A stretch of 64,000 nt of DNA, taken from the sequence record NC_055721.1, one strand, 5' to 3'. This document shows positions 2,350-62,706 of the stretch, one piece after another (positions within the stretch are counted from its first letter, which is position 1; each line of letters opens with the position of its first letter). The notes beneath the pieces are model-generated. The model worked only from the letters and a program-made list of their open reading frames with translations, was not told the origin of the DNA and ran no database searches. Source of the stretch: Escherichia phage EcS1. The translations under genes and the position numbers were made by a program.

Positions 2350-3687
2350 ATGGCTATTCCTTCAGTAACGATTACCCCAGTTAATGCCTCACCACAACTT
2401 GGTCAGACATTAACTATCAATTCAGTAGTTGAATTCGACCCAACAGATGTTTATACATCGTATAAATGGGAACTTTCTGGCGCAGATACAGGCGTTACTA
2501 CTGCAACATACACTAAAGCCAATATCACAAGTGCTGATGCTGGTTCTTACGTATTAAAAGTTATGCATGGTGTTGATGCAGGTTCTGCAACTGAAACCGC
2601 TTCAAGTCCTGCCGTTATTACTACTTTACCGGCAACAACTGTTTCTATTGTTTCAACCACTACTGACATTTATGTCGGTGATACATTAACTATTACTGCT
2701 ACCCCAACTGGTGTTCCTTCTGGCGCAACAGTAGGCGCATATGAATGGTCTAAAGGTGGTACTGTAGTTTCGGGCCAAACTACTTCTACATTGACTAAAA
2801 CAGTTGCGGCTGGCGATGCCGGTTCTTATACTGCTAAAGTATCTTATACTGTAACAGGCCAAGCACCAATTAAAACTGCTGCATCTAATGCTATCTCTGT
2901 TACTGTTGGACCTGCATTAGCATTTGCTACTAACCTTAATGCAACAGCTTCTGTATCAACAGGCCAAGCTCTTACCCTAACTGTAGCAGCATCCGGTGGT
3001 AAATCTCCATATACATATCAATGGAAGAAAGGAAGTGCTAACATAGGAACTAATTTAAATACATTTATAGTTCCTTCTGCGGATTCAACAACTGCAGGAA
3101 CTTATACTGTTGAAGTGACAGATGCTGCAAGTCATAAAATCACATCAGCTTCTTGTGTTGTTACAGTGGTGCCTGCTTTATCTTTGAGCACCGATTTGTC
3201 TGCGACTAAATCAGTTGTTTCAGGTAAAACTCTTACTCTAACTATTGTTGCAGCTAATGGCAAAACGCCTTATACATATCAATGGAAAAGAGCTGGCGTT
3301 GAAATCCCAAGTGAAACAGCTGCTACATTTACTAAATCTGCGTCACCAGCGGACGCAGGTACGTATACATGTGAAGTGACAGATGATAATAACGATAAAA
3401 TCACATCTAATACATGTGTTGTAACTGTTAGTTTATTGCCTGATTTAGAAGTTCTTTGGACTGTACATCCTATCCCATGGCGAGATACAAGTTTCACTCC
3501 GTTAGGTTATTGGGTATTAGATGAAATCTTACTTCAAAAAGCTGATGGCAAAGACTGGAAAACTGATTACGCTACTTATCATTACACAGAAGAAGTTCAA
3601 ACTATTTTAGAAGCATTTAATGCTATGGGTGAAGTTGAAATTCAAGACTCGCGTAATGGGTATATCCACAAAATGAGTTTAATTTAA
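2350..3687 (+). CDS. hoc: Hoc-like outer capsid decoration protein: four Ig-like repeats plus C-terminal capsid-binding domain
   Basis: Four ~90-aa repeats, the last two ending in AGTYTVEVTD / AGTYTCEVTD with internal YTYQWK (Ig-like signature); C-terminal ~80 aa (HPIPWRDTSF...) non-Ig domain; T4 hoc position. Confidence 0.7.
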   Translation: MAIPSVTITPVNASPQLGQTLTINSVVEFDPTDVYTSYKWELSGADTGVTTATYTKANITSADAGSYVLKVMHGVDAGSATETASSPAVITTLPATTVSIVSTTTDIYVGDTLTITATPTGVPSGATVGAYEWSKGGTVVSGQTTSTLTKTVAAGDAGSYTAKVSYTVTGQAPIKTAASNAISVTVGPALAFATNLNATASVSTGQALTLTVAASGGKSPYTYQWKKGSANIGTNLNTFIVPSADSTTAGTYTVEVTDAASHKITSASCVVTVVPALSLSTDLSATKSVVSGKTLTLTIVAANGKTPYTYQWKRAGVEIPSETAATFTKSASPADAGTYTCEVTDDNNDKITSNTCVVTVSLLPDLEVLWTVHPIPWRDTSFTPLGYWVLDEILLQKADGKDWKTDYATYHYTEEVQTILEAFNAMGEVEIQDSRNGYIHKMSLI

Positions 3688-7679: not shown

Positions 7680-8078
7680 TTAACGAGCTGAATTACTAAG
7701 TTGAAGCTTGATTTGTTCAACGGTATCCGGGTTGTCTATAATACTAAATTGAACTGTCACAATAAGCGTATAACTATCATACAACGGTGTAACATCAACT
7801 AATAGTTTATCAATACGAGGTTCAAAGTTACGAATAGCAGATATGATATTACGCTGAGTTGTATCTGCTGTAAGTGGTGTCATGTTTTCAAAAAGCTGAT
7901 CAGACAACTCACATCCAAATTCTGGATTAAAGGGTCGAGACCCTTTACGAGTCGTAATAATGCCTAACAAACTGTTTTTAACTGCACGAGACCCAGTGGC
8001 TTTAGAAATATCGCGATCCCAAGCCATATTCATCTCGGGATCGATATCAGAGTATAATTGATTTATGTTTTTGATCAT
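7680..8078 (-). CDS. 25: Baseplate wedge protein gp25
   Basis: 132 aa, same length as T4 gp25; conserved LYSDIDPEM, LLGIITTRKGSRPF, PEFGC, DQLFENMTPLTAD. Confidence 0.9.
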   Translation of the reverse strand: MIKNINQLYSDIDPEMNMAWDRDISKATGSRAVKNSLLGIITTRKGSRPFNPEFGCELSDQLFENMTPLTADTTQRNIISAIRNFEPRIDKLLVDVTPLYDSYTLIVTVQFSIIDNPDTVEQIKLQLSNSAR

Positions 8079-8707
8079 TATAGTAGCTTAAAGAATTCTT
8101 TAAGTCCTTTAATTACATGAACACTGGTTTCGCCACATTCACATGAAATAGGCACTGCTAATACTACTTGTGGTTTTAATAGCATAGCGGTAATGTCTTT
8201 TAGTGCTTCACTAGAGATAGCAGCATAAAGATCATCTAATTCTAAATCTGAAAGATCATCTACTTTAATGACTGAACCATCAACATCAATGAACTCAATA
8301 CACTTAGCAACCATCATAGCCATATTAGAGTCATCAAAAAGTTTAGGGTATTTGAACTTGACCTTAAAGTTAGTGAATTCCCACACCAGGGGCTCAGAGG
8401 GAGCATCAATTTGTGCATGTGTAAAGTTAAGTGGCACCTCTTGTTCCCGCTTACAGGCACACACCCACGTATGCTCATGATTAACTTCACCTAATGAATG
8501 AGCCCAAAGTTTAATGACAAGCAATTCAGATTCTTGGCGATTAAGGTTATCAGCATCAGTACAGTTTTTAATCAGTTCTACGATGGCTAAGTCTAATGTT
8601 CCCTTAAGCTTTGCATGCATAAGGTCTTTATATTCTCTAAGAGTAAATGCTCGGCAATTAACCACTTTACCTGAGACATGTACTGTAAATTTATATTCAA
8701 AGTTCAT
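8078..8707 (-). CDS. 26: Baseplate hub protein gp26
   Basis: 209 aa at the T4 gene 26 position and size; start codon overlaps gp25 stop. Confidence 0.65.
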   Translation of the reverse strand: MNFEYKFTVHVSGKVVNCRAFTLREYKDLMHAKLKGTLDLAIVELIKNCTDADNLNRQESELLVIKLWAHSLGEVNHEHTWVCACKREQEVPLNFTHAQIDAPSEPLVWEFTNFKVKFKYPKLFDDSNMAMMVAKCIEFIDVDGSVIKVDDLSDLELDDLYAAISSEALKDITAMLLKPQVVLAVPISCECGETSVHVIKGLKEFFKLL

Positions 8708-8729
8708 AAAATAGTTCCTCTTATATGTG

Positions 8730-8741
8730 TATTTATAAATA
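8730..8741. promoter_or_regulatory. Overlapping divergent late promoter boxes (TATTTATAAATA) for gene 26 (minus) and gene 51 (plus)
   Basis: TATAAATA on plus at 8734-8741 and on minus at 8730-8737, in the 50-bp divergent intergenic region. Confidence 0.55.
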
Positions 8742-8757
8742 GATGAAAGGAGATACT

Positions 8758-9510
8758 ATGGCTAATATCGTACGTTGCAATTTGCCTGATGGTACTCATC
8801 GTTTCAAGCCGTTCACAGTCGCAGATTATCGAGATTTCTTGTTAGTTCGAAATGACATGAACACTAAATCAAAAGAAGAACAAATCGAATTGCTTGACGA
8901 TCTCTTAGATGATTATTTCGATGAATATCCTAAATCATGGCGCCCTTACATTTTTATTTCAGTTTTTACTTCATCTATCGGTAAAACAAAAATACCTGTA
9001 GCATATGAATGTTCTAAATGTGGTAACACAAAACGATTCATGATTAACCTGGCCCAACCGCCATTAACAGCTCCAACCATTGAATGCTCAGGTGTCAAAA
9101 TCAAATTCAAATACCCAAATGAATTCACTGATGACTTAGTCCAATTAGTCGCTGACAATATCGATTCAGTCGAAGACAGTGAAGCTGTTTATAAGTGGGA
9201 TGAACTTGATAATGAAACTAAAGTTCAAGTGATTGATTCTATTGATTACAAATCATTTGAAGCTCTTATCAAGAAAATGAAACCACTTTATATAGAAGTT
9301 AATTACGGCTGCTGTACAAAACACCAATATGTTTATGATTCATTAGTAGATGTATTTAAATTATTATTGAACCCAGATGAAGTCTTTTCTTTTTATCAAG
9401 TGAATCATCTTTTAGTTAAAAGTCATTATGACTTAAATTCTGTTATGAGTATGATTCCAATTGAAAGAAGTATTGCTTTATCATTAGTCGAAAAGGACCT
9501 TAAGAAATGA
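8758..9510 (+). CDS. 51: Baseplate hub assembly protein gp51
   Basis: Second ATG with AAAGGAG RBS; ~250 aa as in T4 gp51; synteny. Confidence 0.65.
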   Translation: MANIVRCNLPDGTHRFKPFTVADYRDFLLVRNDMNTKSKEEQIELLDDLLDDYFDEYPKSWRPYIFISVFTSSIGKTKIPVAYECSKCGNTKRFMINLAQPPLTAPTIECSGVKIKFKYPNEFTDDLVQLVADNIDSVEDSEAVYKWDELDNETKVQVIDSIDYKSFEALIKKMKPLYIEVNYGCCTKHQYVYDSLVDVFKLLLNPDEVFSFYQVNHLLVKSHYDLNSVMSMIPIERSIALSLVEKDLKK

Positions 9511-10715
9511 CCAAAACAGTCCAGATGGCTGGGTATCCTAATATTAGTATCAAGCTATATGAAAACTATGATGCTTGGCTTGAAAATAGATTTGTTGAAC
9601 TTGCTGCTACATTCACTACACTCACAATGAGAGATGGACTTTATGGAAACAATGAAGGCCTTCTTCAGTTCTATGATAACAAGAATCTCCATACTAAAAT
9701 GGATGGTGAACAAGTCATTCAGATTTCTGTAGCTAATGCTAACACTCAAAGAACATTATCTCGTATCTATGGATGTAAACACTTTGCTGTAGGTGTTGAC
9801 TCTAAAAGTGATAACATCATTACGATTCAATTAGCACCAATTCATATTTTAGAAGACTTGAAATTCTCAAGAACATTTTTTGCTAATGCCTCACAAAGTA
9901 TTAACGAAATGATTAACGTCATCTATCAAGACCGACCGTTAATTGCACCACCCGTTGAATCACTTAACATATATGTTCCTAAGGTTCCATGGTGTGGCAA
10001 TGTTCCTAAATACTATGACTTCGTTCGCGATACTGGGTTAGCTGTTGATTCTGACCAATTCGTTTTTGTTTGGGAAGATATCCAAGGCATCAGGTTCATG
10101 GATTATCAACAAATGACTGCTCAAGAAGCTAAAACATTTGTTGTTGGTGAACCAAGACTAATTGGACAATATGTTAATCAATTAGAAACACCTATCGCAT
10201 TTGACTTTGAATGGCTAACTAAAGCTAACCAACACACACGTAAGCCAATGACTAACGTTACGATATATGCTCATTCATTTATGGATAAAGAGGTTACTCG
10301 TATTGTTGTTGGTGAAGGACAAAATAGTGTATTAGTTTCACGTTCAGGTGCTTATGCTGAACAGATTTATCGTAACGGTTATGAAGAAGCATTGCGATTA
10401 GGAACAATGGCTCAATACGATGGTTATGCTCACGTGAAGGTATACGGTGACTTTGAATTATGCCCAGGTCAAAAATTAAACTTTGCTGATATTAAGAACC
10501 AATTCGTATCTGATTTTTATATTGATGAAGTGATTCATGAAATAAGCAATAATCAATCAATCACTAACATCTATGCATTTACAAATGGTAAGCCGATTAC
10601 ACCGGTAGAACCAATTAAGGTGAAAAATGAACTTAAAACTTATAATCCCGATGAAGACATTGAAACTGAATGGGAAGGACCTCAAGATCCCGAAACTGGG
10701 ACTGAAACACCATAA
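9507..10715 (+). CDS. 27: Baseplate hub protein gp27
   Basis: 402 aa; position and size as T4 gp27 (391 aa). Confidence 0.7.
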   Translation: MTKTVQMAGYPNISIKLYENYDAWLENRFVELAATFTTLTMRDGLYGNNEGLLQFYDNKNLHTKMDGEQVIQISVANANTQRTLSRIYGCKHFAVGVDSKSDNIITIQLAPIHILEDLKFSRTFFANASQSINEMINVIYQDRPLIAPPVESLNIYVPKVPWCGNVPKYYDFVRDTGLAVDSDQFVFVWEDIQGIRFMDYQQMTAQEAKTFVVGEPRLIGQYVNQLETPIAFDFEWLTKANQHTRKPMTNVTIYAHSFMDKEVTRIVVGEGQNSVLVSRSGAYAEQIYRNGYEEALRLGTMAQYDGYAHVKVYGDFELCPGQKLNFADIKNQFVSDFYIDEVIHEISNNQSITNIYAFTNGKPITPVEPIKVKNELKTYNPDEDIETEWEGPQDPETGTETP

Positions 10716-11169
10716 ACTAGTTCGTGATGTCCGCGGCCCAGATGAGAATCTTAAAATACTAATGGATTCTATATGTCCTGGTTTAACGGCTGCTGAAACA
10801 GATTTCGTTGCTCTTCATGTATTAGCATTTAATAATCGTTTGAAAGATGAAGTCACAATAGATGGCTTCACTTATAAATTGAATGACATTTATATTTGTC
10901 AACGATTAGAACAACAATTTGCTGGTCATACATTCTATTTCAGGTCTAATAAGCCATTTGAACAGTTCGGACCAGTCGATGATGTATTAGAGAAATGTTT
11001 CTTAAAAGTAGATAATTCTACCGAATGCCCTGATTTCATGGGTATGCCTGCATTTGTTTCTAAATGGGCTGATGATATTACTTCGACTGTAGCTATTCCT
11101 GGTCCTAATGGCCCTATCAAAGGAATAATACCTATTATGGACATTTTAAATGATTCAACCAAACAGTGA
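10627..11169 (+). CDS. 28: Baseplate hub distal subunit gp28 (start uncertain; overlaps gp27 3' end in another frame)
   Basis: 180-aa ORF at T4 gene 28 position; 89-nt overlap with gene 27. Confidence 0.55.
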   Translation: MNLKLIIPMKTLKLNGKDLKIPKLGLKHHKLVRDVRGPDENLKILMDSICPGLTAAETDFVALHVLAFNNRLKDEVTIDGFTYKLNDIYICQRLEQQFAGHTFYFRSNKPFEQFGPVDDVLEKCFLKVDNSTECPDFMGMPAFVSKWADDITSTVAIPGPNGPIKGIIPIMDILNDSTKQ

Positions 11170-12916
11170 TAAAACTACATTACGTCGTAAGAAAAAAATA
11201 GAAGATGGCGAACCTGAGCGTAAAGCTCAGGGGGCAGCATCAGATCAAACTGTTGTCCTTAATGATATATCTGCTAAATTAACCGACGTACAAGCAGCAA
11301 CTGAACTAATTTCAGATACGGTTGAAGCTAAAGGTAATCAAATATTAGGAAGCATTGATGGGCTTTCTAAAGGTCTAGAAAATGTAGAAGCGGCCTCAGA
11401 ATTAGCGGCTGAAGCTTCAGAGAAAACAACTGAACAAGTTTCTAAACTCAATGATGTTGCTTCAGCTATTTCAGATAAATTAGCTAAGCTTTCAGAGATG
11501 TTCGAGCATAAGCTTTTTGGTGCATCTGATTTTGTTGGCCCACAACCTTCAGCATCTCCTGATTCATCTTTACTTGAAGCAATTAAAGCTGCAATGCCTC
11601 TTGAAGTAATTCAGCCATCGTTGAATGAATTACTTGAAAAACTATTACCAGGAGGACAACCGCCAGAACCGCCAACTCCTCCACCTGAAGACCCTCCTGC
11701 AGAAGAGAAACCTTCTAAAGAAAAACCAGGTAAGAGTGAAGATTCTAAATTAGATGATTTGATTAAAATCACTAAAGGAGGATTCAAAGCTTCAGTAGGT
11801 GTGTCTGACAAAATTGCTGGTATGTTGTTCAAATATACATTGACAGCAGCAGCCGAAGCAGCTAAATTAGCCGGGATGATGTTTGCACTTATTTTAGGTA
11901 TTGATCTTATTAGAATTCATTTCAAATATTGGAGCGATTTGTTTAATAAGAGTTTTGAAGAGTTCTTTGCTAAAGCTGAAGAATGGGGACCTTTAATTCA
12001 ATCAGTTGTTGAGATGGCTAAAAATATTTCTACAATGTGGGACGAAAAGAATTGGTCTGGTCTTGCAGGTGCTATTATTAAAGGCATCGGTGATATTACT
12101 ATTGCATTAGCTGATTTAATGTTCTTAGGCATCACTAAAATTACGGCTGCAATGCTTCGTGCAATGGGTATGGATGATAAAGCCTTAACTGTAGAAGGTT
12201 ATGGTTTAGAACAATTCCAAAAATCAGGTGCAGTTCTTGATGAACAAGACCAAGATACTTTGGCTCGTTATCAAGATCGTAATATGCAAAAAGATACTAA
12301 GAAAAAAACTGAAACAGCTGAAAGGTACAAAAATAGCAAAGCGGCTCGTGAACAAGCAGTTAATTATGGGTCTCTGACAAAAGAAGAAGCTGCTCAAATC
12401 GAAGCTGGTACTTATGGCAAAGAGAATGAAATTGCTAATCTTCCTGAAGATCAACGTATTAAAGCTATCAAGGCTCGTAATGAAACTCAAGCTGCATTAA
12501 AACGTACTAATGATTTAACAGCGACAACTCGAAGCAGTGATACTTCGCGCATCGAAAATCTCGATAAATCTATTGACTCAATTGGTAAGCGTTTAGCTGA
12601 TCCTGCATTAGCTAAAACACCTAAGCTTCGTAAAGACATGGAAGGCGAATTAGGTAAATTAACGGCTGCAGTAGATAAGCTTAAAGCAGATGCTAAGGTA
12701 GCTCCAGCTCCGGTTGAAGAACAAGAAGATACTCAAAAATCTAATCGTATTGAACAACAGAAACGAGCTAATGAAGCAGCTAAAAATGCTCCAGCATCAA
12801 ATGCTCAAGTCACTAACAATACTGTTGTAAATAAGACTAGTAAAACCAATGTTACTGTGCCACCTACAAGTTCAACTCCTGCTCCAGGCATGGGTGGCTC
12901 ACGAAGGGTTAATTAA
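11150..12916 (+). CDS. 29: Tail tube tape-measure / baseplate hub protein gp29
   Basis: 588 aa (T4 gp29 ~590), Ala/Lys-rich coiled-coil-like composition; synteny. Confidence 0.7.
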   Translation: MIQPNSDKTTLRRKKKIEDGEPERKAQGAASDQTVVLNDISAKLTDVQAATELISDTVEAKGNQILGSIDGLSKGLENVEAASELAAEASEKTTEQVSKLNDVASAISDKLAKLSEMFEHKLFGASDFVGPQPSASPDSSLLEAIKAAMPLEVIQPSLNELLEKLLPGGQPPEPPTPPPEDPPAEEKPSKEKPGKSEDSKLDDLIKITKGGFKASVGVSDKIAGMLFKYTLTAAAEAAKLAGMMFALILGIDLIRIHFKYWSDLFNKSFEEFFAKAEEWGPLIQSVVEMAKNISTMWDEKNWSGLAGAIIKGIGDITIALADLMFLGITKITAAMLRAMGMDDKALTVEGYGLEQFQKSGAVLDEQDQDTLARYQDRNMQKDTKKKTETAERYKNSKAAREQAVNYGSLTKEEAAQIEAGTYGKENEIANLPEDQRIKAIKARNETQAALKRTNDLTATTRSSDTSRIENLDKSIDSIGKRLADPALAKTPKLRKDMEGELGKLTAAVDKLKADAKVAPAPVEEQEDTQKSNRIEQQKRANEAAKNAPASNAQVTNNTVVNKTSKTNVTVPPTSSTPAPGMGGSRRVN

Positions 12917-12924
12917 GGAATATT

Positions 12925-13983
12925 ATGGACATCAAAATTTTAGATGATTTCAAAGATAAGTTTGATTCACTTATTGGCGAAAAAACATCTGCCGGACAAA
13001 GTAAAGTTCAACCAATGAGAAAAACCATTAGCGCTCAATATCCGGCTGAGCGCGCCTCAGGCAATGATGGTATAGACGATTTACGCATTAACGATCTTTA
13101 TAAAAATGGGCTGTTATTTACAGCCTATGATTATAAATCAAGAACAACTCCTGATTTACGTTCAATGCGTTCATCTGTTATTGAAAGTGTTCGTAATAGT
13201 TTTGACCCTGTGAAAGGCACCACTGTTGGTGCCGGAACTCAATTCGATAAGAATCCTATTGCTAATATATTGTTACCACGTTCTAAATCTGACACCGATT
13301 CTATTTCGCATAAGTTCAATGATGTGGGTGAATCACTTATTACTCGTGGTGCAGGGACGGCCACTGGTGTTTTAAGTAATGTCGCTTCTACCACAGTATT
13401 TGGTGCCATTGAATCAATTACTCAAGGTTGGATGTCAGACCATGGTGAACAGATTTATAACACAGCACGTTCAATGTATGCTGGCCCTGATAATAGAAGC
13501 AAAGTATTCACGTGGGACTTAACCCCACGAAATGTTCAAGACTTAATTCAAATCATTAACATCTATGAGACCTTTAACTATTTCTCATATGGTGAAACAG
13601 GCAATAGTAATTTTGCTGCTGATTTGAAAGAACAGATTGACTCATGGTACAAAACCACATTCATTAATAATCTGACACCAACAGGAGCTGACACTTCAAA
13701 TACGATGATGGAACAAGTTACTTCGTTCTTGAGTAATGTCATTGTTGTGAGTAATCCAACAGTTTGGTTTATTCGTAACTTTGGTAAAACATCATCGTTT
13801 GACGGTCGCCCAGATGTGTTTGGGCCTTGTCAAATACAAAGTATAAGATTTGATAAGTCACCAAATGGTAATTTTAATGGATTGGCTATTGCTCCTAACT
13901 TACCAAGTTCATTCGTATTGGAAATCACTTTCCGTGAAATCTTGACATTGAACCGTGGAACTCTTTATAATGGAGCTCTATAA
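12925..13983 (+). CDS. 48: Baseplate tail-tube junction protein gp48
   Basis: 352 aa; synteny 29-48-54. Confidence 0.7.
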   Translation: MDIKILDDFKDKFDSLIGEKTSAGQSKVQPMRKTISAQYPAERASGNDGIDDLRINDLYKNGLLFTAYDYKSRTTPDLRSMRSSVIESVRNSFDPVKGTTVGAGTQFDKNPIANILLPRSKSDTDSISHKFNDVGESLITRGAGTATGVLSNVASTTVFGAIESITQGWMSDHGEQIYNTARSMYAGPDNRSKVFTWDLTPRNVQDLIQIINIYETFNYFSYGETGNSNFAADLKEQIDSWYKTTFINNLTPTGADTSNTMMEQVTSFLSNVIVVSNPTVWFIRNFGKTSSFDGRPDVFGPCQIQSIRFDKSPNGNFNGLAIAPNLPSSFVLEITFREILTLNRGTLYNGAL

Positions 13984-20926: not shown

Positions 20927-21376
20927 TTATTTCACCCCATAAGAAACGAAAGCTTCGCCAGTCTTTTTGACCACAATAACTCGTACACCATCAGAAGCAT
21001 TTCTGAGTTGACTTACCGCAAAGTCTTTAGCTTCTTGTTCAGTAAAAGGACCATTTGGTAGAGGCAGATTGCTTTTGCTTGTAGGAATAGTGATAGTCCA
21101 GAAATCTTGTTCAGTATCAACACGAATAAACTTCTTAGATATTTCATTCTGTAAGAACATACACCAAACGTTGTCGAACTCGCCTTCATTTGCTTTGAAG
21201 GTGCCTTTATCAGTACGAACTGCAATGATGTTTCCATCCTTATCTAGTTCAGCAACTTCAAACTCACCGAAACCTATTAAACGTTTCCATGCAGAAGCAA
21301 AGCCTGCACTACGGTCTTCCATGAATTGTTTACCAGCTTCAGTCCATTTGTAAACGATTTTTTCAGACGTCAACAT
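20927..21376 (-). CDS. Hypothetical protein
   Basis: Start at internal ATG (MLTSEK) preceded by GAGGAAATTG RBS and a UUCG hairpin. Confidence 0.45.
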   Translation of the reverse strand: MLTSEKIVYKWTEAGKQFMEDRSAGFASAWKRLIGFGEFEVAELDKDGNIIAVRTDKGTFKANEGEFDNVWCMFLQNEISKKFIRVDTEQDFWTITIPTSKSNLPLPNGPFTEQEAKDFAVSQLRNASDGVRVIVVKKTGEAFVSYGVK

Positions 21377-21394
21377 AACAATTTCCTCAGAGTA

Positions 21395-21408
21395 GGGCCC
21401 GAAGGCCC
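21395..21408 (-). promoter_or_regulatory. Intercistronic UUCG-tetraloop hairpin (GGGCC-UUCG-GGCCC)
   Basis: Plus strand GGGCCCGAAGGCCC between stop at 21417 and start at 21376. Confidence 0.6.
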
Positions 21409-21416
21409 ATTTTAGA

Positions 21417-21779
21417 TTAGATAGTGAATTCAGATGAAACGATATCCCATAATGCTTCACGCTGCTCATCAGTAGTTTTCATACTTAACACATGACGCAA
21501 CCATAACTTAACTAACATTTTGCGATTAGAACCGTTCCAAGATGGATGAGTACCTAAATCTCGAGTACGAACATCATCATGAAAACCAACTTTAATTACT
21601 GAACCTTTCAAAGAAACATCCAGCGTAATCCCGTTTTCGAAAGCAACATGAACATAGTTATCTTCCCAATACATGTTGATATCACACACTGTACCGTTTT
21701 CATGTTTCCATAAACATACAGTAGAAACATCCCATGCATTAGCTTTAACATATTTACGTTCGAAGTTTAAGTAGTTCAT
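21417..21779 (-). CDS. Hypothetical protein
   Basis: ORF; start placed at Met downstream of the promoter at 21811-21839. Confidence 0.4.
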   Translation of the reverse strand: MNYLNFERKYVKANAWDVSTVCLWKHENGTVCDINMYWEDNYVHVAFENGITLDVSLKGSVIKVGFHDDVRTRDLGTHPSWNGSNRKMLVKLWLRHVLSMKTTDEQREALWDIVSSEFTI

Positions 21780-21810
21780 TTTGTTATCCAAGTTTGCTGA
21801 TTGAGTGTAC

Positions 21811-21839
21811 ATAATACCACACTCAATCAGCGTTGTAAA
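21811..21839 (-). promoter_or_regulatory. Early promoter (-35 TTTACA, 17 bp, -10 TATTAT) embedded in 13-bp inverted repeat
   Basis: Arms GCTGATTGAGTGT (21796-21808) and ACACTCAATCAGC (21819-21831) flank the -10. Confidence 0.5.
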
Positions 21840-61791: not shown

Positions 61792-61820
61792 ACTATACCA
61801 TGTTAATCAGACGTTGTAAA
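61792..61820 (-). promoter_or_regulatory. Early promoter (-35 TTTACA, 17 bp, -10 TATAGT) overlapping 3' end of denB-like gene
   Basis: Cassette similar to motA promoter; drives tiny TM ORF at ~61649-61765. Confidence 0.45.
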
Positions 61821-62444
61821 CACCTTACATGCACATGAGTCTTCCCAGCCCCAATCAACACGTCCTGAGATATACCAACCAGTGAAATTACTCTTTGCAA
61901 CTAATCCGGCTTCCTTTTTGAATGCCATCTTGTCTGCAAGTACGTAAGGGATAAGCCTGTACGCGCCAGGACCCATCTTCTCAACACGGAATATAATTAT
62001 AACGTCTGATACAGAGAATTCAATGAACGGCCCCAGGTTAATCCCATAACCACCTGGATATCGTCCGAACTGACCAGTTGTACATCCTACCCACTGTTTC
62101 TGACCTATACGTTCAGGGTTCAACATACTTGTCTTAACTTCAACTCGCAATCCAGAATACTTAGGATGAGCCAGCACATCGTATGCATACGTGTAAGGGT
62201 CTTTGAGATTTTCGCCACCATGATTAATGTAGCCATCAAGATGGTCAGCTACATAACGTTCGGCAATGATAGCTGGGATACAACGATCAGTAACTTCTTC
62301 GAGGTCTTGTTCAGGGTCTTGAGACATCGAATAACGAACAGTGTCTTTAATCTTTACTTTATCTTCAGGACTCAAATCCTTGACCGTGAAAGTCTGTGTC
62401 TTCAATTCGCTCAATCGGACCCAGCCCGGATTCGTCAGTTCCAT
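61803..62444 (-). CDS. Hypothetical protein, possibly endonuclease IV (DenB) by synteny; start uncertain
   Basis: Position between ndd and rIIB as T4 denB; N-terminal 80 nt overlap with upstream ORF. Confidence 0.35.
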   Translation of the reverse strand: MELTNPGWVRLSELKTQTFTVKDLSPEDKVKIKDTVRYSMSQDPEQDLEEVTDRCIPAIIAERYVADHLDGYINHGGENLKDPYTYAYDVLAHPKYSGLRVEVKTSMLNPERIGQKQWVGCTTGQFGRYPGGYGINLGPFIEFSVSDVIIIFRVEKMGPGAYRLIPYVLADKMAFKKEAGLVAKSNFTGWYISGRVDWGWEDSCACKVFTTSD

Positions 62445-62706
62445 AAGTTACTTCACCTGTATCAAGTTTAACACATTTAACATAGATAACGCCGTAATAG
62501 ATTCGGTCGTCATGATTTAGTTTGTTACGATCTAATGCATCGATTTCTTCATCAGTTAAACCAACAAATAAATCTTTAACTACAAGAATACCATCATACT
62601 TCTCATCAAAAATCACATCTTTACAATATACGATATCTGCTTTATGATTACCATGAAGGAAAATCTTATTGATTTTCTTATCGCCTTCATTCATATAATT
62701 AATCAT
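62365..62706 (-). CDS. Hypothetical protein
   Basis: 113-aa ORF. Confidence 0.35.
   Translation of the reverse strand: MINYMNEGDKKINKIFLHGNHKADIVYCKDVIFDEKYDGILVVKDLFVGLTDEEIDALDRNKLNHDDRIYYGVIYVKCVKLDTGEVTYGTDESGLGPIERIEDTDFHGQGFES

Follow-up and report, generated by a model that had tools for sequence, protein, structure and literature searches.

Genes 27 and 28 of Escherichia phage EcS1 very probably share an inherited out-of-frame overlap of the T4 type

We analysed the junction of the baseplate hub genes 27 and 28 of Escherichia phage EcS1 in a 64,000-nucleotide (nt) stretch of sequence record NC_055721.1, the whole of which is called the window below. The two genes have 89 nt in common, read in different frames. 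This is very probably an ordinary inherited gene 27/28 junction of the T4 (Tevenvirinae) type with a genuine out-of-frame overlap. The arrangement as such is already known, and what the window presents is a lineage-specific length of it. The phage is a T4-type myovirus (Straboviridae, Tevenvirinae-like). An earlier reading of the same DNA from its letters alone (the sequence-only reading) had pointed out the overlap and had offered three explanations, a downstream start of gp28, a genuine extended overlap or a sequencing frameshift; the second is borne out by the comparison with relatives. The features of the junction are listed here.

9507-10715, plus strand: gene 27 homologue, baseplate hub, 402 amino acids (Pfam, T4 gp27 structure match, phrog_1135)
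10617-10623, plus strand: Shine-Dalgarno sequence AAGGTGA for gene 28, inside gene 27 (duplex with the 3' end of 16S rRNA, -4.8 kcal/mol)
10626-10715, plus strand: C-terminal tail of gp27, codons 374-402 (NELKTYNPDEDIETEWEGPQDPETGTETP) and then TAA, the same bases as gp28 residues 1-30
10627-10715, plus strand: dual-coding stretch of 89 nt, gene 27 in frame 0 and gene 28 in frame +1 (open reading frames, relatives, codon-position entropy)
10627-11169, plus strand: gene 28 homologue, 'baseplate hub distal subunit', 180 amino acids (PF11110, phrog_1140, tblastn, AlphaFold2)

In the +1 frame, gene 27 contains 23 stops over 402 codons, so that a stretch of 30 codons would remain open by chance in about 17% of cases. 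An open +1 frame is therefore no proof by itself, and homology decides. The gp27-like protein, whose open reading frame (ORF) was taken from the ORF list and the sequence, has the two-domain architecture of gp27, with PF09097 at residues 6-200 (E = 3e-86) and PF09096 at residues 203-375 (E = 1.7e-70). It belongs to phrog_1135 and is homologous to T4 gp27 of solved structure (1k28_D, E = 6e-161; 9f4a, E = 3e-169). The gp28-like protein, encoded between genes 27 and 29 and in the +1 frame relative to gene 27, contains PF11110 at residues 21-172 (E = 9e-61), and its residues 1-175 match positions 1-174 of phrog_1140, a profile of 174 positions. The 89 shared bases include the gp27 stop codon. The sequence-only reading was right about the frames and the extent of the overlap, and also about the length of gp27: T4 gp27 has 391 amino acids (a coding sequence, CDS, of 1176 nt), and the protein of the window is exactly 11 amino acids longer. 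Because its stop comes 11 codons later, the overlap exceeds the 56 nt of T4 by 33 nt, which gives the 89 nt observed.

The frame of gene 28 is closed upstream by an in-frame TGA at 10621-10623, the last three bases of the Shine-Dalgarno sequence, and thus ATG 10627 is the earliest start possible for gp28. This start is embedded in a junction motif, AAGGTNAAAA-ATG-AAYTTAAA (tAAGGTnAAAA ATG AAyTTAAA), situated within the 3' end of gene 27. We compared 60 loci, 48 of the Tevenvirinae type and 12 from more distant T4-like phages. The motif, together with gp28 in the +1 frame, was found at 48 of the 48 Tevenvirinae-type loci, T4 included. Its nucleotide sequence is conserved in Winklervirus, Kanagawavirus, Dhakavirus, Gaprivervirus, Karamvirus, Tequatrovirus (T4), Gelderlandvirus, Jiaodavirus and Moonvirus, as well as in a Yersinia phage and Muldoonvirus. 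The curated T4 record NC_000866.4 gives gene 27 at 117228-118403 and gene 28 at 118348-118881, a 56-nt overlap from the homologous ATG, with an annotation that states: 'N-terminal amino acid sequence determined for the gp28 hub subunit by F. Arisaka et al.' Going by this annotation, T4 already supplies N-terminal protein data of the kind that the sequence-only reading had proposed as a check. The RefSeq record of phage CHI14 annotates a 27/28 overlap of 101 nt. In tblastn searches with gp28 of the window, the alignments begin at query residue 1 in T4 and most relatives. Alignment thus places the start of gp28 inside gene 27, the opposite of the start after the gp27 stop that the sequence-only reading had named as evidence against an overlap.

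As for other signals near the start, the minimum free energy of RNA folding in 10577-10726 is no different from that of shuffled sequences (z = -1.11). An Rfam scan of 9400-11300 gave one chance match alone (E = 0.94), nothing beyond short two-copy matches was seen among repeats in 10400-10900, and no convincing internal late or sigma-70 promoter for gene 28 was found.

The coding signature of gene 28 continues through the overlap. In 46 distinct sequences, the entropy at codon positions 1, 2 and 3 is 0.54, 0.29 and 1.25 for gp28 codons 1-30, compared with 0.84, 0.59 and 1.38 for codons 31-175. The low values at positions 1 and 2 show that the gp28 frame carries selection in the overlap. The gp28 third positions, which are the first positions of gp27, vary there almost as freely as elsewhere. 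At the protein level, gp28 residues 1-30 (MNLKLIIPMKTLKLNGKDLKIPKLGLKHHK) can be aligned from the first residue onwards with every relative, the non-overlapping ones included, and the pattern MNLKLILP.KKI..N.KEI.IPKLGLKHH is kept in Aeromonas, Acinetobacter and Krischvirus phages with abutting genes. Residues L3, K10, P22, K23 and G25 are invariant, and residues 1-45 are conserved family-wide. The AlphaFold2 model of gp28 (predicted local distance difference test score, pLDDT, 86; predicted template modelling score, pTM, 0.78) has strands 9-14 and 17-22, forming a hairpin, and a helix 26-32 inside the overlap. According to this model, the overlap bases encode a structured and conserved N-terminus of gp28. 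A sequence search of the PDB with gp28 found no solved relative. Pairwise BLASTP comparisons of gp28 with gp51 and gp26 gave no match; profile and fold comparisons did show a link.

The length of the overlap varies among the Tevenvirinae-type loci as follows.

101 nt: 3 loci (Winklervirus)
89 nt: 5 loci (the window itself and Kanagawavirus-type)
68 nt: 8 loci
59 nt: 1 locus
56 nt: 6 loci (T4 group)
53 nt: 2 loci
50 nt: 2 loci (Moon)
47 nt: 12 loci
44 nt: 2 loci
29 nt: 7 loci

The window lies within the normal range of its phage group (29-101 nt) and is not the extreme. The sequence-only reading had called the overlap unusually long. This holds within the window, where a crude gene call over all 64,000 nt gives 89 nt as the longest overlap among 72 same-strand neighbour pairs (42 are without overlap and 17 overlap by 1 or 4 nt), but it does not hold within the phage group.

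The comparison with T4 shows homologous proteins in the order 51-27-28-29, gp28 in the +1 frame and beginning in codon 374 of gene 27, and the start motif AAGGTtAAAA ATG AAtTTAAA. However, the overlap of T4 is 56 nt and its gp27 tail has 18 residues (NEFKSDTTTEESSSSNKQ), against 89 nt and 29 residues in the window. The window is identical in sequence to IMG/VR contig IMGVR_UViG_2974737508_000001 (175,437 bp). Within the GenBank phage collection it comes closest to Winklervirus phages of Serratia, Erwinia and Kosakonia, with about 80% nucleotide identity. In the Serratia phages CHI14 and X20 the junction sequence is identical to that of the window, but the overlap is 101 nt and gp27 is 4 codons longer. 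No record of the collection exceeds about 81% identity over the hub-gene region; judged on this region alone, the phage probably falls outside the described genera.

At the 12 more distant T4-like loci, from Aeromonas and Acinetobacter phages and Krischvirus, the gene 27/28 junction ranges from -2 to +4 nt. The genes, their order and the gp28 N-terminal pattern are the same in these phages (Aeromonas AS-gz and avDM1; Krischvirus GEC-3S; Acinetobacter Melin and DLP2), but genes 27 and 28 abut, with ATGA, a 1-nt overlap or a 1-nt gap. In the Krischvirus GEC-3S record gp27 has only 260 amino acids (locus positions 1698-2480) and its PF09097 match is limited to profile positions 126-193, which points to a wrongly called start or a disrupted frame in this entry.

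What varies among the overlapping loci is the end of gp27. Its tail is acidic and rich in proline and threonine, and is 9 to 33 residues long among genera. Past a shared KVK-NELK, which the Shine-Dalgarno sequence, the ATG and the MNLK codons dictate, the tails diverge in sequence and length (NELKPDTSN, NEFKSDTTTEESSSSNKQ and NELKTYNPDEDIETEWEGPQDPETGTETP are examples). The tails of the window and X20 are 72% identical (21/29 residues). In the AlphaFold2 model of gp27, residues 371-402 have pLDDT 33-37, that is, below 50, and no secondary structure; a low pLDDT is no proof of disorder, as residues 238-304 of gp27 are also low in the monomer model. On this reading the tail is weakly constrained and probably disordered.

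The position of the gp27 stop depends on gp28 codons. A stop in the gp27 frame arises where a T-ending gp28 codon precedes a codon beginning with AA, AG or GA. In the window it is formed by CAT|AAA (gp28 His29-Lys30). X20 has CAC, which also encodes histidine in gp28, and there gp27 continues for 4 codons to TCG TGA. The length of the tail (9-33 codons) thus drifts because changes synonymous in gp28 move the gp27 stop. On a small scale, the junction illustrates plainly how changes that are silent in one frame let the length of an overlap drift.

Several observations weigh against an ordinary inherited overlap with a freely drifting tail. Firstly, the Shine-Dalgarno pairing at 10627 is only moderate (-4.8 kcal/mol) and the spacer is short. 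Secondly, protein-level evidence for the gp28 start is confined to T4, through a truncated annotation note in NC_000866.4. Thirdly, the gp27 frame stays open for 29 codons, although deeper in gene 28 the same frame meets stops at a rate of 0.117 per codon (P about 0.03; for the run of 18 codons in T4, P about 0.11). The tail may thus be under some selection rather than merely drifting, although this is a hint and no more. Stop avoidance was measured here by run-length probability; a test for T before AA, AG or GA is true by construction inside an open frame. Finally, the first residues of the tail, K[VI]KNE[LI].T, recur in gp27 of Acinetobacter phages as the linker to a CHAP-like domain.

The last point bears on the origin of the overlap. 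In the Acinetobacter phages Melin (locus positions 407-1990) and DLP2 (380-1963) gp27 has about 527 amino acids, and the linker K[IV]KNE[IL].T (K-I-K-N-E-I-E-T) leads to an extra C-terminal domain of about 150 amino acids that resembles CHAP (PF05257, E = 2.6e-5, 25.1 bits, just below the cut-off of 26). Gene 28 follows the CHAP-bearing gene 27 without overlap. As far as the sequence match goes, this gp27 is a hub protein with a possible peptidoglycan hydrolase. In Aeromonas phages gp27 ends just ahead of the NELK position, with an ATGA junction to gene 28. The overlap may have arisen by loss of an ancestral gp27 stop codon, or it may have arisen by deletion of a C-terminal domain of gp27. A candidate relic of the gp28 start in this linker was rejected: the +1 frame reads MKLRQLHL..., and the similarity ends after three residues.

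An overlap of this kind could also serve a programmed +1 frameshift, yielding a gp27-gp28 fusion beside the separate gp27 and gp28, in the manner of lambda G/GT. We consider this very unlikely. The likeliest site would be the conserved GUG-AAA-AAU-G, where tRNA-Lys would slip from AAA to AAA and AUG would be read next, with AAGGUG directly upstream. As in E. coli prfB, a Shine-Dalgarno-like element is close upstream of the codon where the +1 slip would re-pair. However, the shift in prfB requires a CUU-U slip and, in the A site, a UGA that is poorly decoded, whereas the A site of the window holds an ordinary AAU, neither a slow codon nor a stop, and the motif is fully accounted for by the Shine-Dalgarno sequence, the A-rich spacer, the start codon and dual coding. 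The likeness to lambda consists in two overlapping frames just upstream of the tape-measure gene. However, the known G/GT cases shift by -1 at a slippery heptamer (X XXY YYZ) that lies within a chaperone gene, and their downstream frame lacks a separate start. In the window, gp28 is in the +1 frame, and the -1 frame meets TGA at 10628-10630. Gene 28 comes with a Shine-Dalgarno sequence and an ATG, both conserved, and the N-terminus of gp28 in T4 was sequenced, according to the annotation note. The upstream ORF encodes gp27, which is a structural protein of the hub and for which structures have been solved. In more distant T4-like phages genes 27 and 28 abut, in some of them in another relative frame, so a fusion is no conserved requirement. 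We found no natural gp27-gp28 fusion among 49 gp28 homologues of 101-215 amino acids, the longest of which, P0044 (215 amino acids), has a partial gp28 domain only. A literature search, limited to the collection of papers at hand, found no paper reporting a 27/28 fusion or frameshift, nor one describing the 27/28 overlap.

It is also highly improbable that the universally conserved AAGGUN-AAA-AAU-G, besides binding ribosomes, lets a +1 frameshift occur at low frequency. There tRNA-Lys would re-pair on five A's and the gp28 AUG would be read as an internal methionine, and the minor fusion product would tether gp28, as a chaperone-like protein distantly related to gp26 and gp51, to the hub while the tape measure is loaded. 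One record is annotated along such lines. In Citrobacter phage Moon (KM236240, locus positions 8607-10245) gp27 is labelled 'tape measure chaperone', and a two-piece joined CDS of 545 amino acids, 'GT-like fusion protein; T4 gp28-like', is added across the 50-nt overlap. The geometry of this fusion, which was the top Foldseek match, implies a +1 shift. Since gp27 is a structural hub protein, the chaperone and frameshift label is very probably wrong.

We give very little credence to a start of gp28 further downstream, at ATG 10651 (a 65-nt overlap), TTG 10660 or ATG 10762 (Met46, the first ATG past the gp27 stop), with the long overlap as a longest-ORF artefact. It is favoured by GenBank records with a shortened gp28, namely X20 (locus position 3175), SP18 (2136), SP1 (2184), MHG19 (2034) and Kosakonia phage 305 (2892), by protein-database entries of 130-166 amino acids, and by the chance openness of the +1 frame noted above. 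However, the duplex energies with the 16S 3' end at these three codons are +1.7, -1.0 and -2.7 kcal/mol, respectively, against -4.8 kcal/mol at ATG 10627, which alone among the candidate starts compared has a usable Shine-Dalgarno sequence. Met9 is not conserved (relatives have M, I, T, L or Q), whereas residues 1-45 are, even where the genes do not overlap, and the match to phrog_1140 begins at residue 1. The AlphaFold2 model gives residues 9-32 a confident structure, and the homologous ATG of T4 is supported by protein sequencing, as its annotation note states.

The start of gp28 is annotated inconsistently. The five records named above give N-terminally shortened proteins of 106-162 amino acids, and still carry the conserved Shine-Dalgarno/ATG motif and the N-terminus upstream. 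Automatic or manual annotation often shortens gp28 in order to avoid an overlap with gene 27. The value of the present analysis is mainly for annotation, as the motif fixes the gp28 start for the whole subfamily; knowledge of the T4 baseplate hub is unchanged.

The sequencing frameshift proposed in the sequence-only reading, as an indel near 10600-10720 that made an artificial gp27 extension and overlap, deserves virtually no weight: gp27 is indeed 11 amino acids longer than in T4 and the region has short A-runs, but X20 and CHI14 (about 80% identity) can be aligned to the window through the junction without a gap and without loss of either frame, its tail resembles that of X20, Kanagawavirus-type loci also have 89 nt and Winklervirus 101 nt, and the two-frame layout is present at every Tevenvirinae-type locus.

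With two genes that genuinely overlap, expression would proceed as follows. Genes 51, 27, 28 and 29 are probably read from one late transcript, given the promoter at 8734-8741 and the lack of a terminator-like site in 8000-13000. In the phage of the window, ribosomes would initiate gp28 independently at ATG 10627 via the internal AAGGTGA. Ribosomes translating gene 27 would cross this start site and stop 89 nt further on, and their traffic may damp gp28 synthesis. Known coupling distances disfavour termination-reinitiation over 89 nt. Such coupling of gp28 is unlikely because the gp27 stop lies 89 nt downstream of the gp28 start. The neighbouring features are given below.

8730-8737, minus strand: mirror copy of the late promoter consensus, facing gene 26 (exact match)
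8734-8741, plus strand: late promoter consensus TATAAATA, upstream of gene 51 (exact match)
11150-12916, plus strand: gene 29 homologue, tape measure / hub (phrog_1283, E = 1e-188)

The plus-strand promoter is the likely start of the 51-27-28-29 transcript, and no further match to the late promoter consensus was found between 8741 and 23903. The two copies of TATAAATA overlap back to back on opposite strands (TATTTATAAATA, 8730-8741) between the divergent genes 26 and 51.

Elsewhere in the window, a gene call with first-ATG starts gave further long same-strand overlaps on the minus strand, of 80 nt (61803-62444 and 62365-62706) and of 53 nt (20927-21469 and 21417-21812). These may be over-called starts or more real overlaps.

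At ATG 8743, where the longest ORF of gene 51 begins, a Shine-Dalgarno sequence is lacking (+0.9 kcal/mol). Gene 51 likely starts at ATG 8758 (MANIV...), which is preceded by a strong GGAG (-8.7 kcal/mol) and gives a protein of 250 amino acids, compared with 249 for T4 gp51. The ATG of gene 27 overlaps the stop of gene 51 (ATGA). Genes 28 and 29 overlap by 20 nt (11150-11169) if gp29 starts at ATG 11150, where the Shine-Dalgarno sequence is weak (-3.0 kcal/mol); T4 has 4 nt at this junction, and X20 and MX01 have 17 nt.

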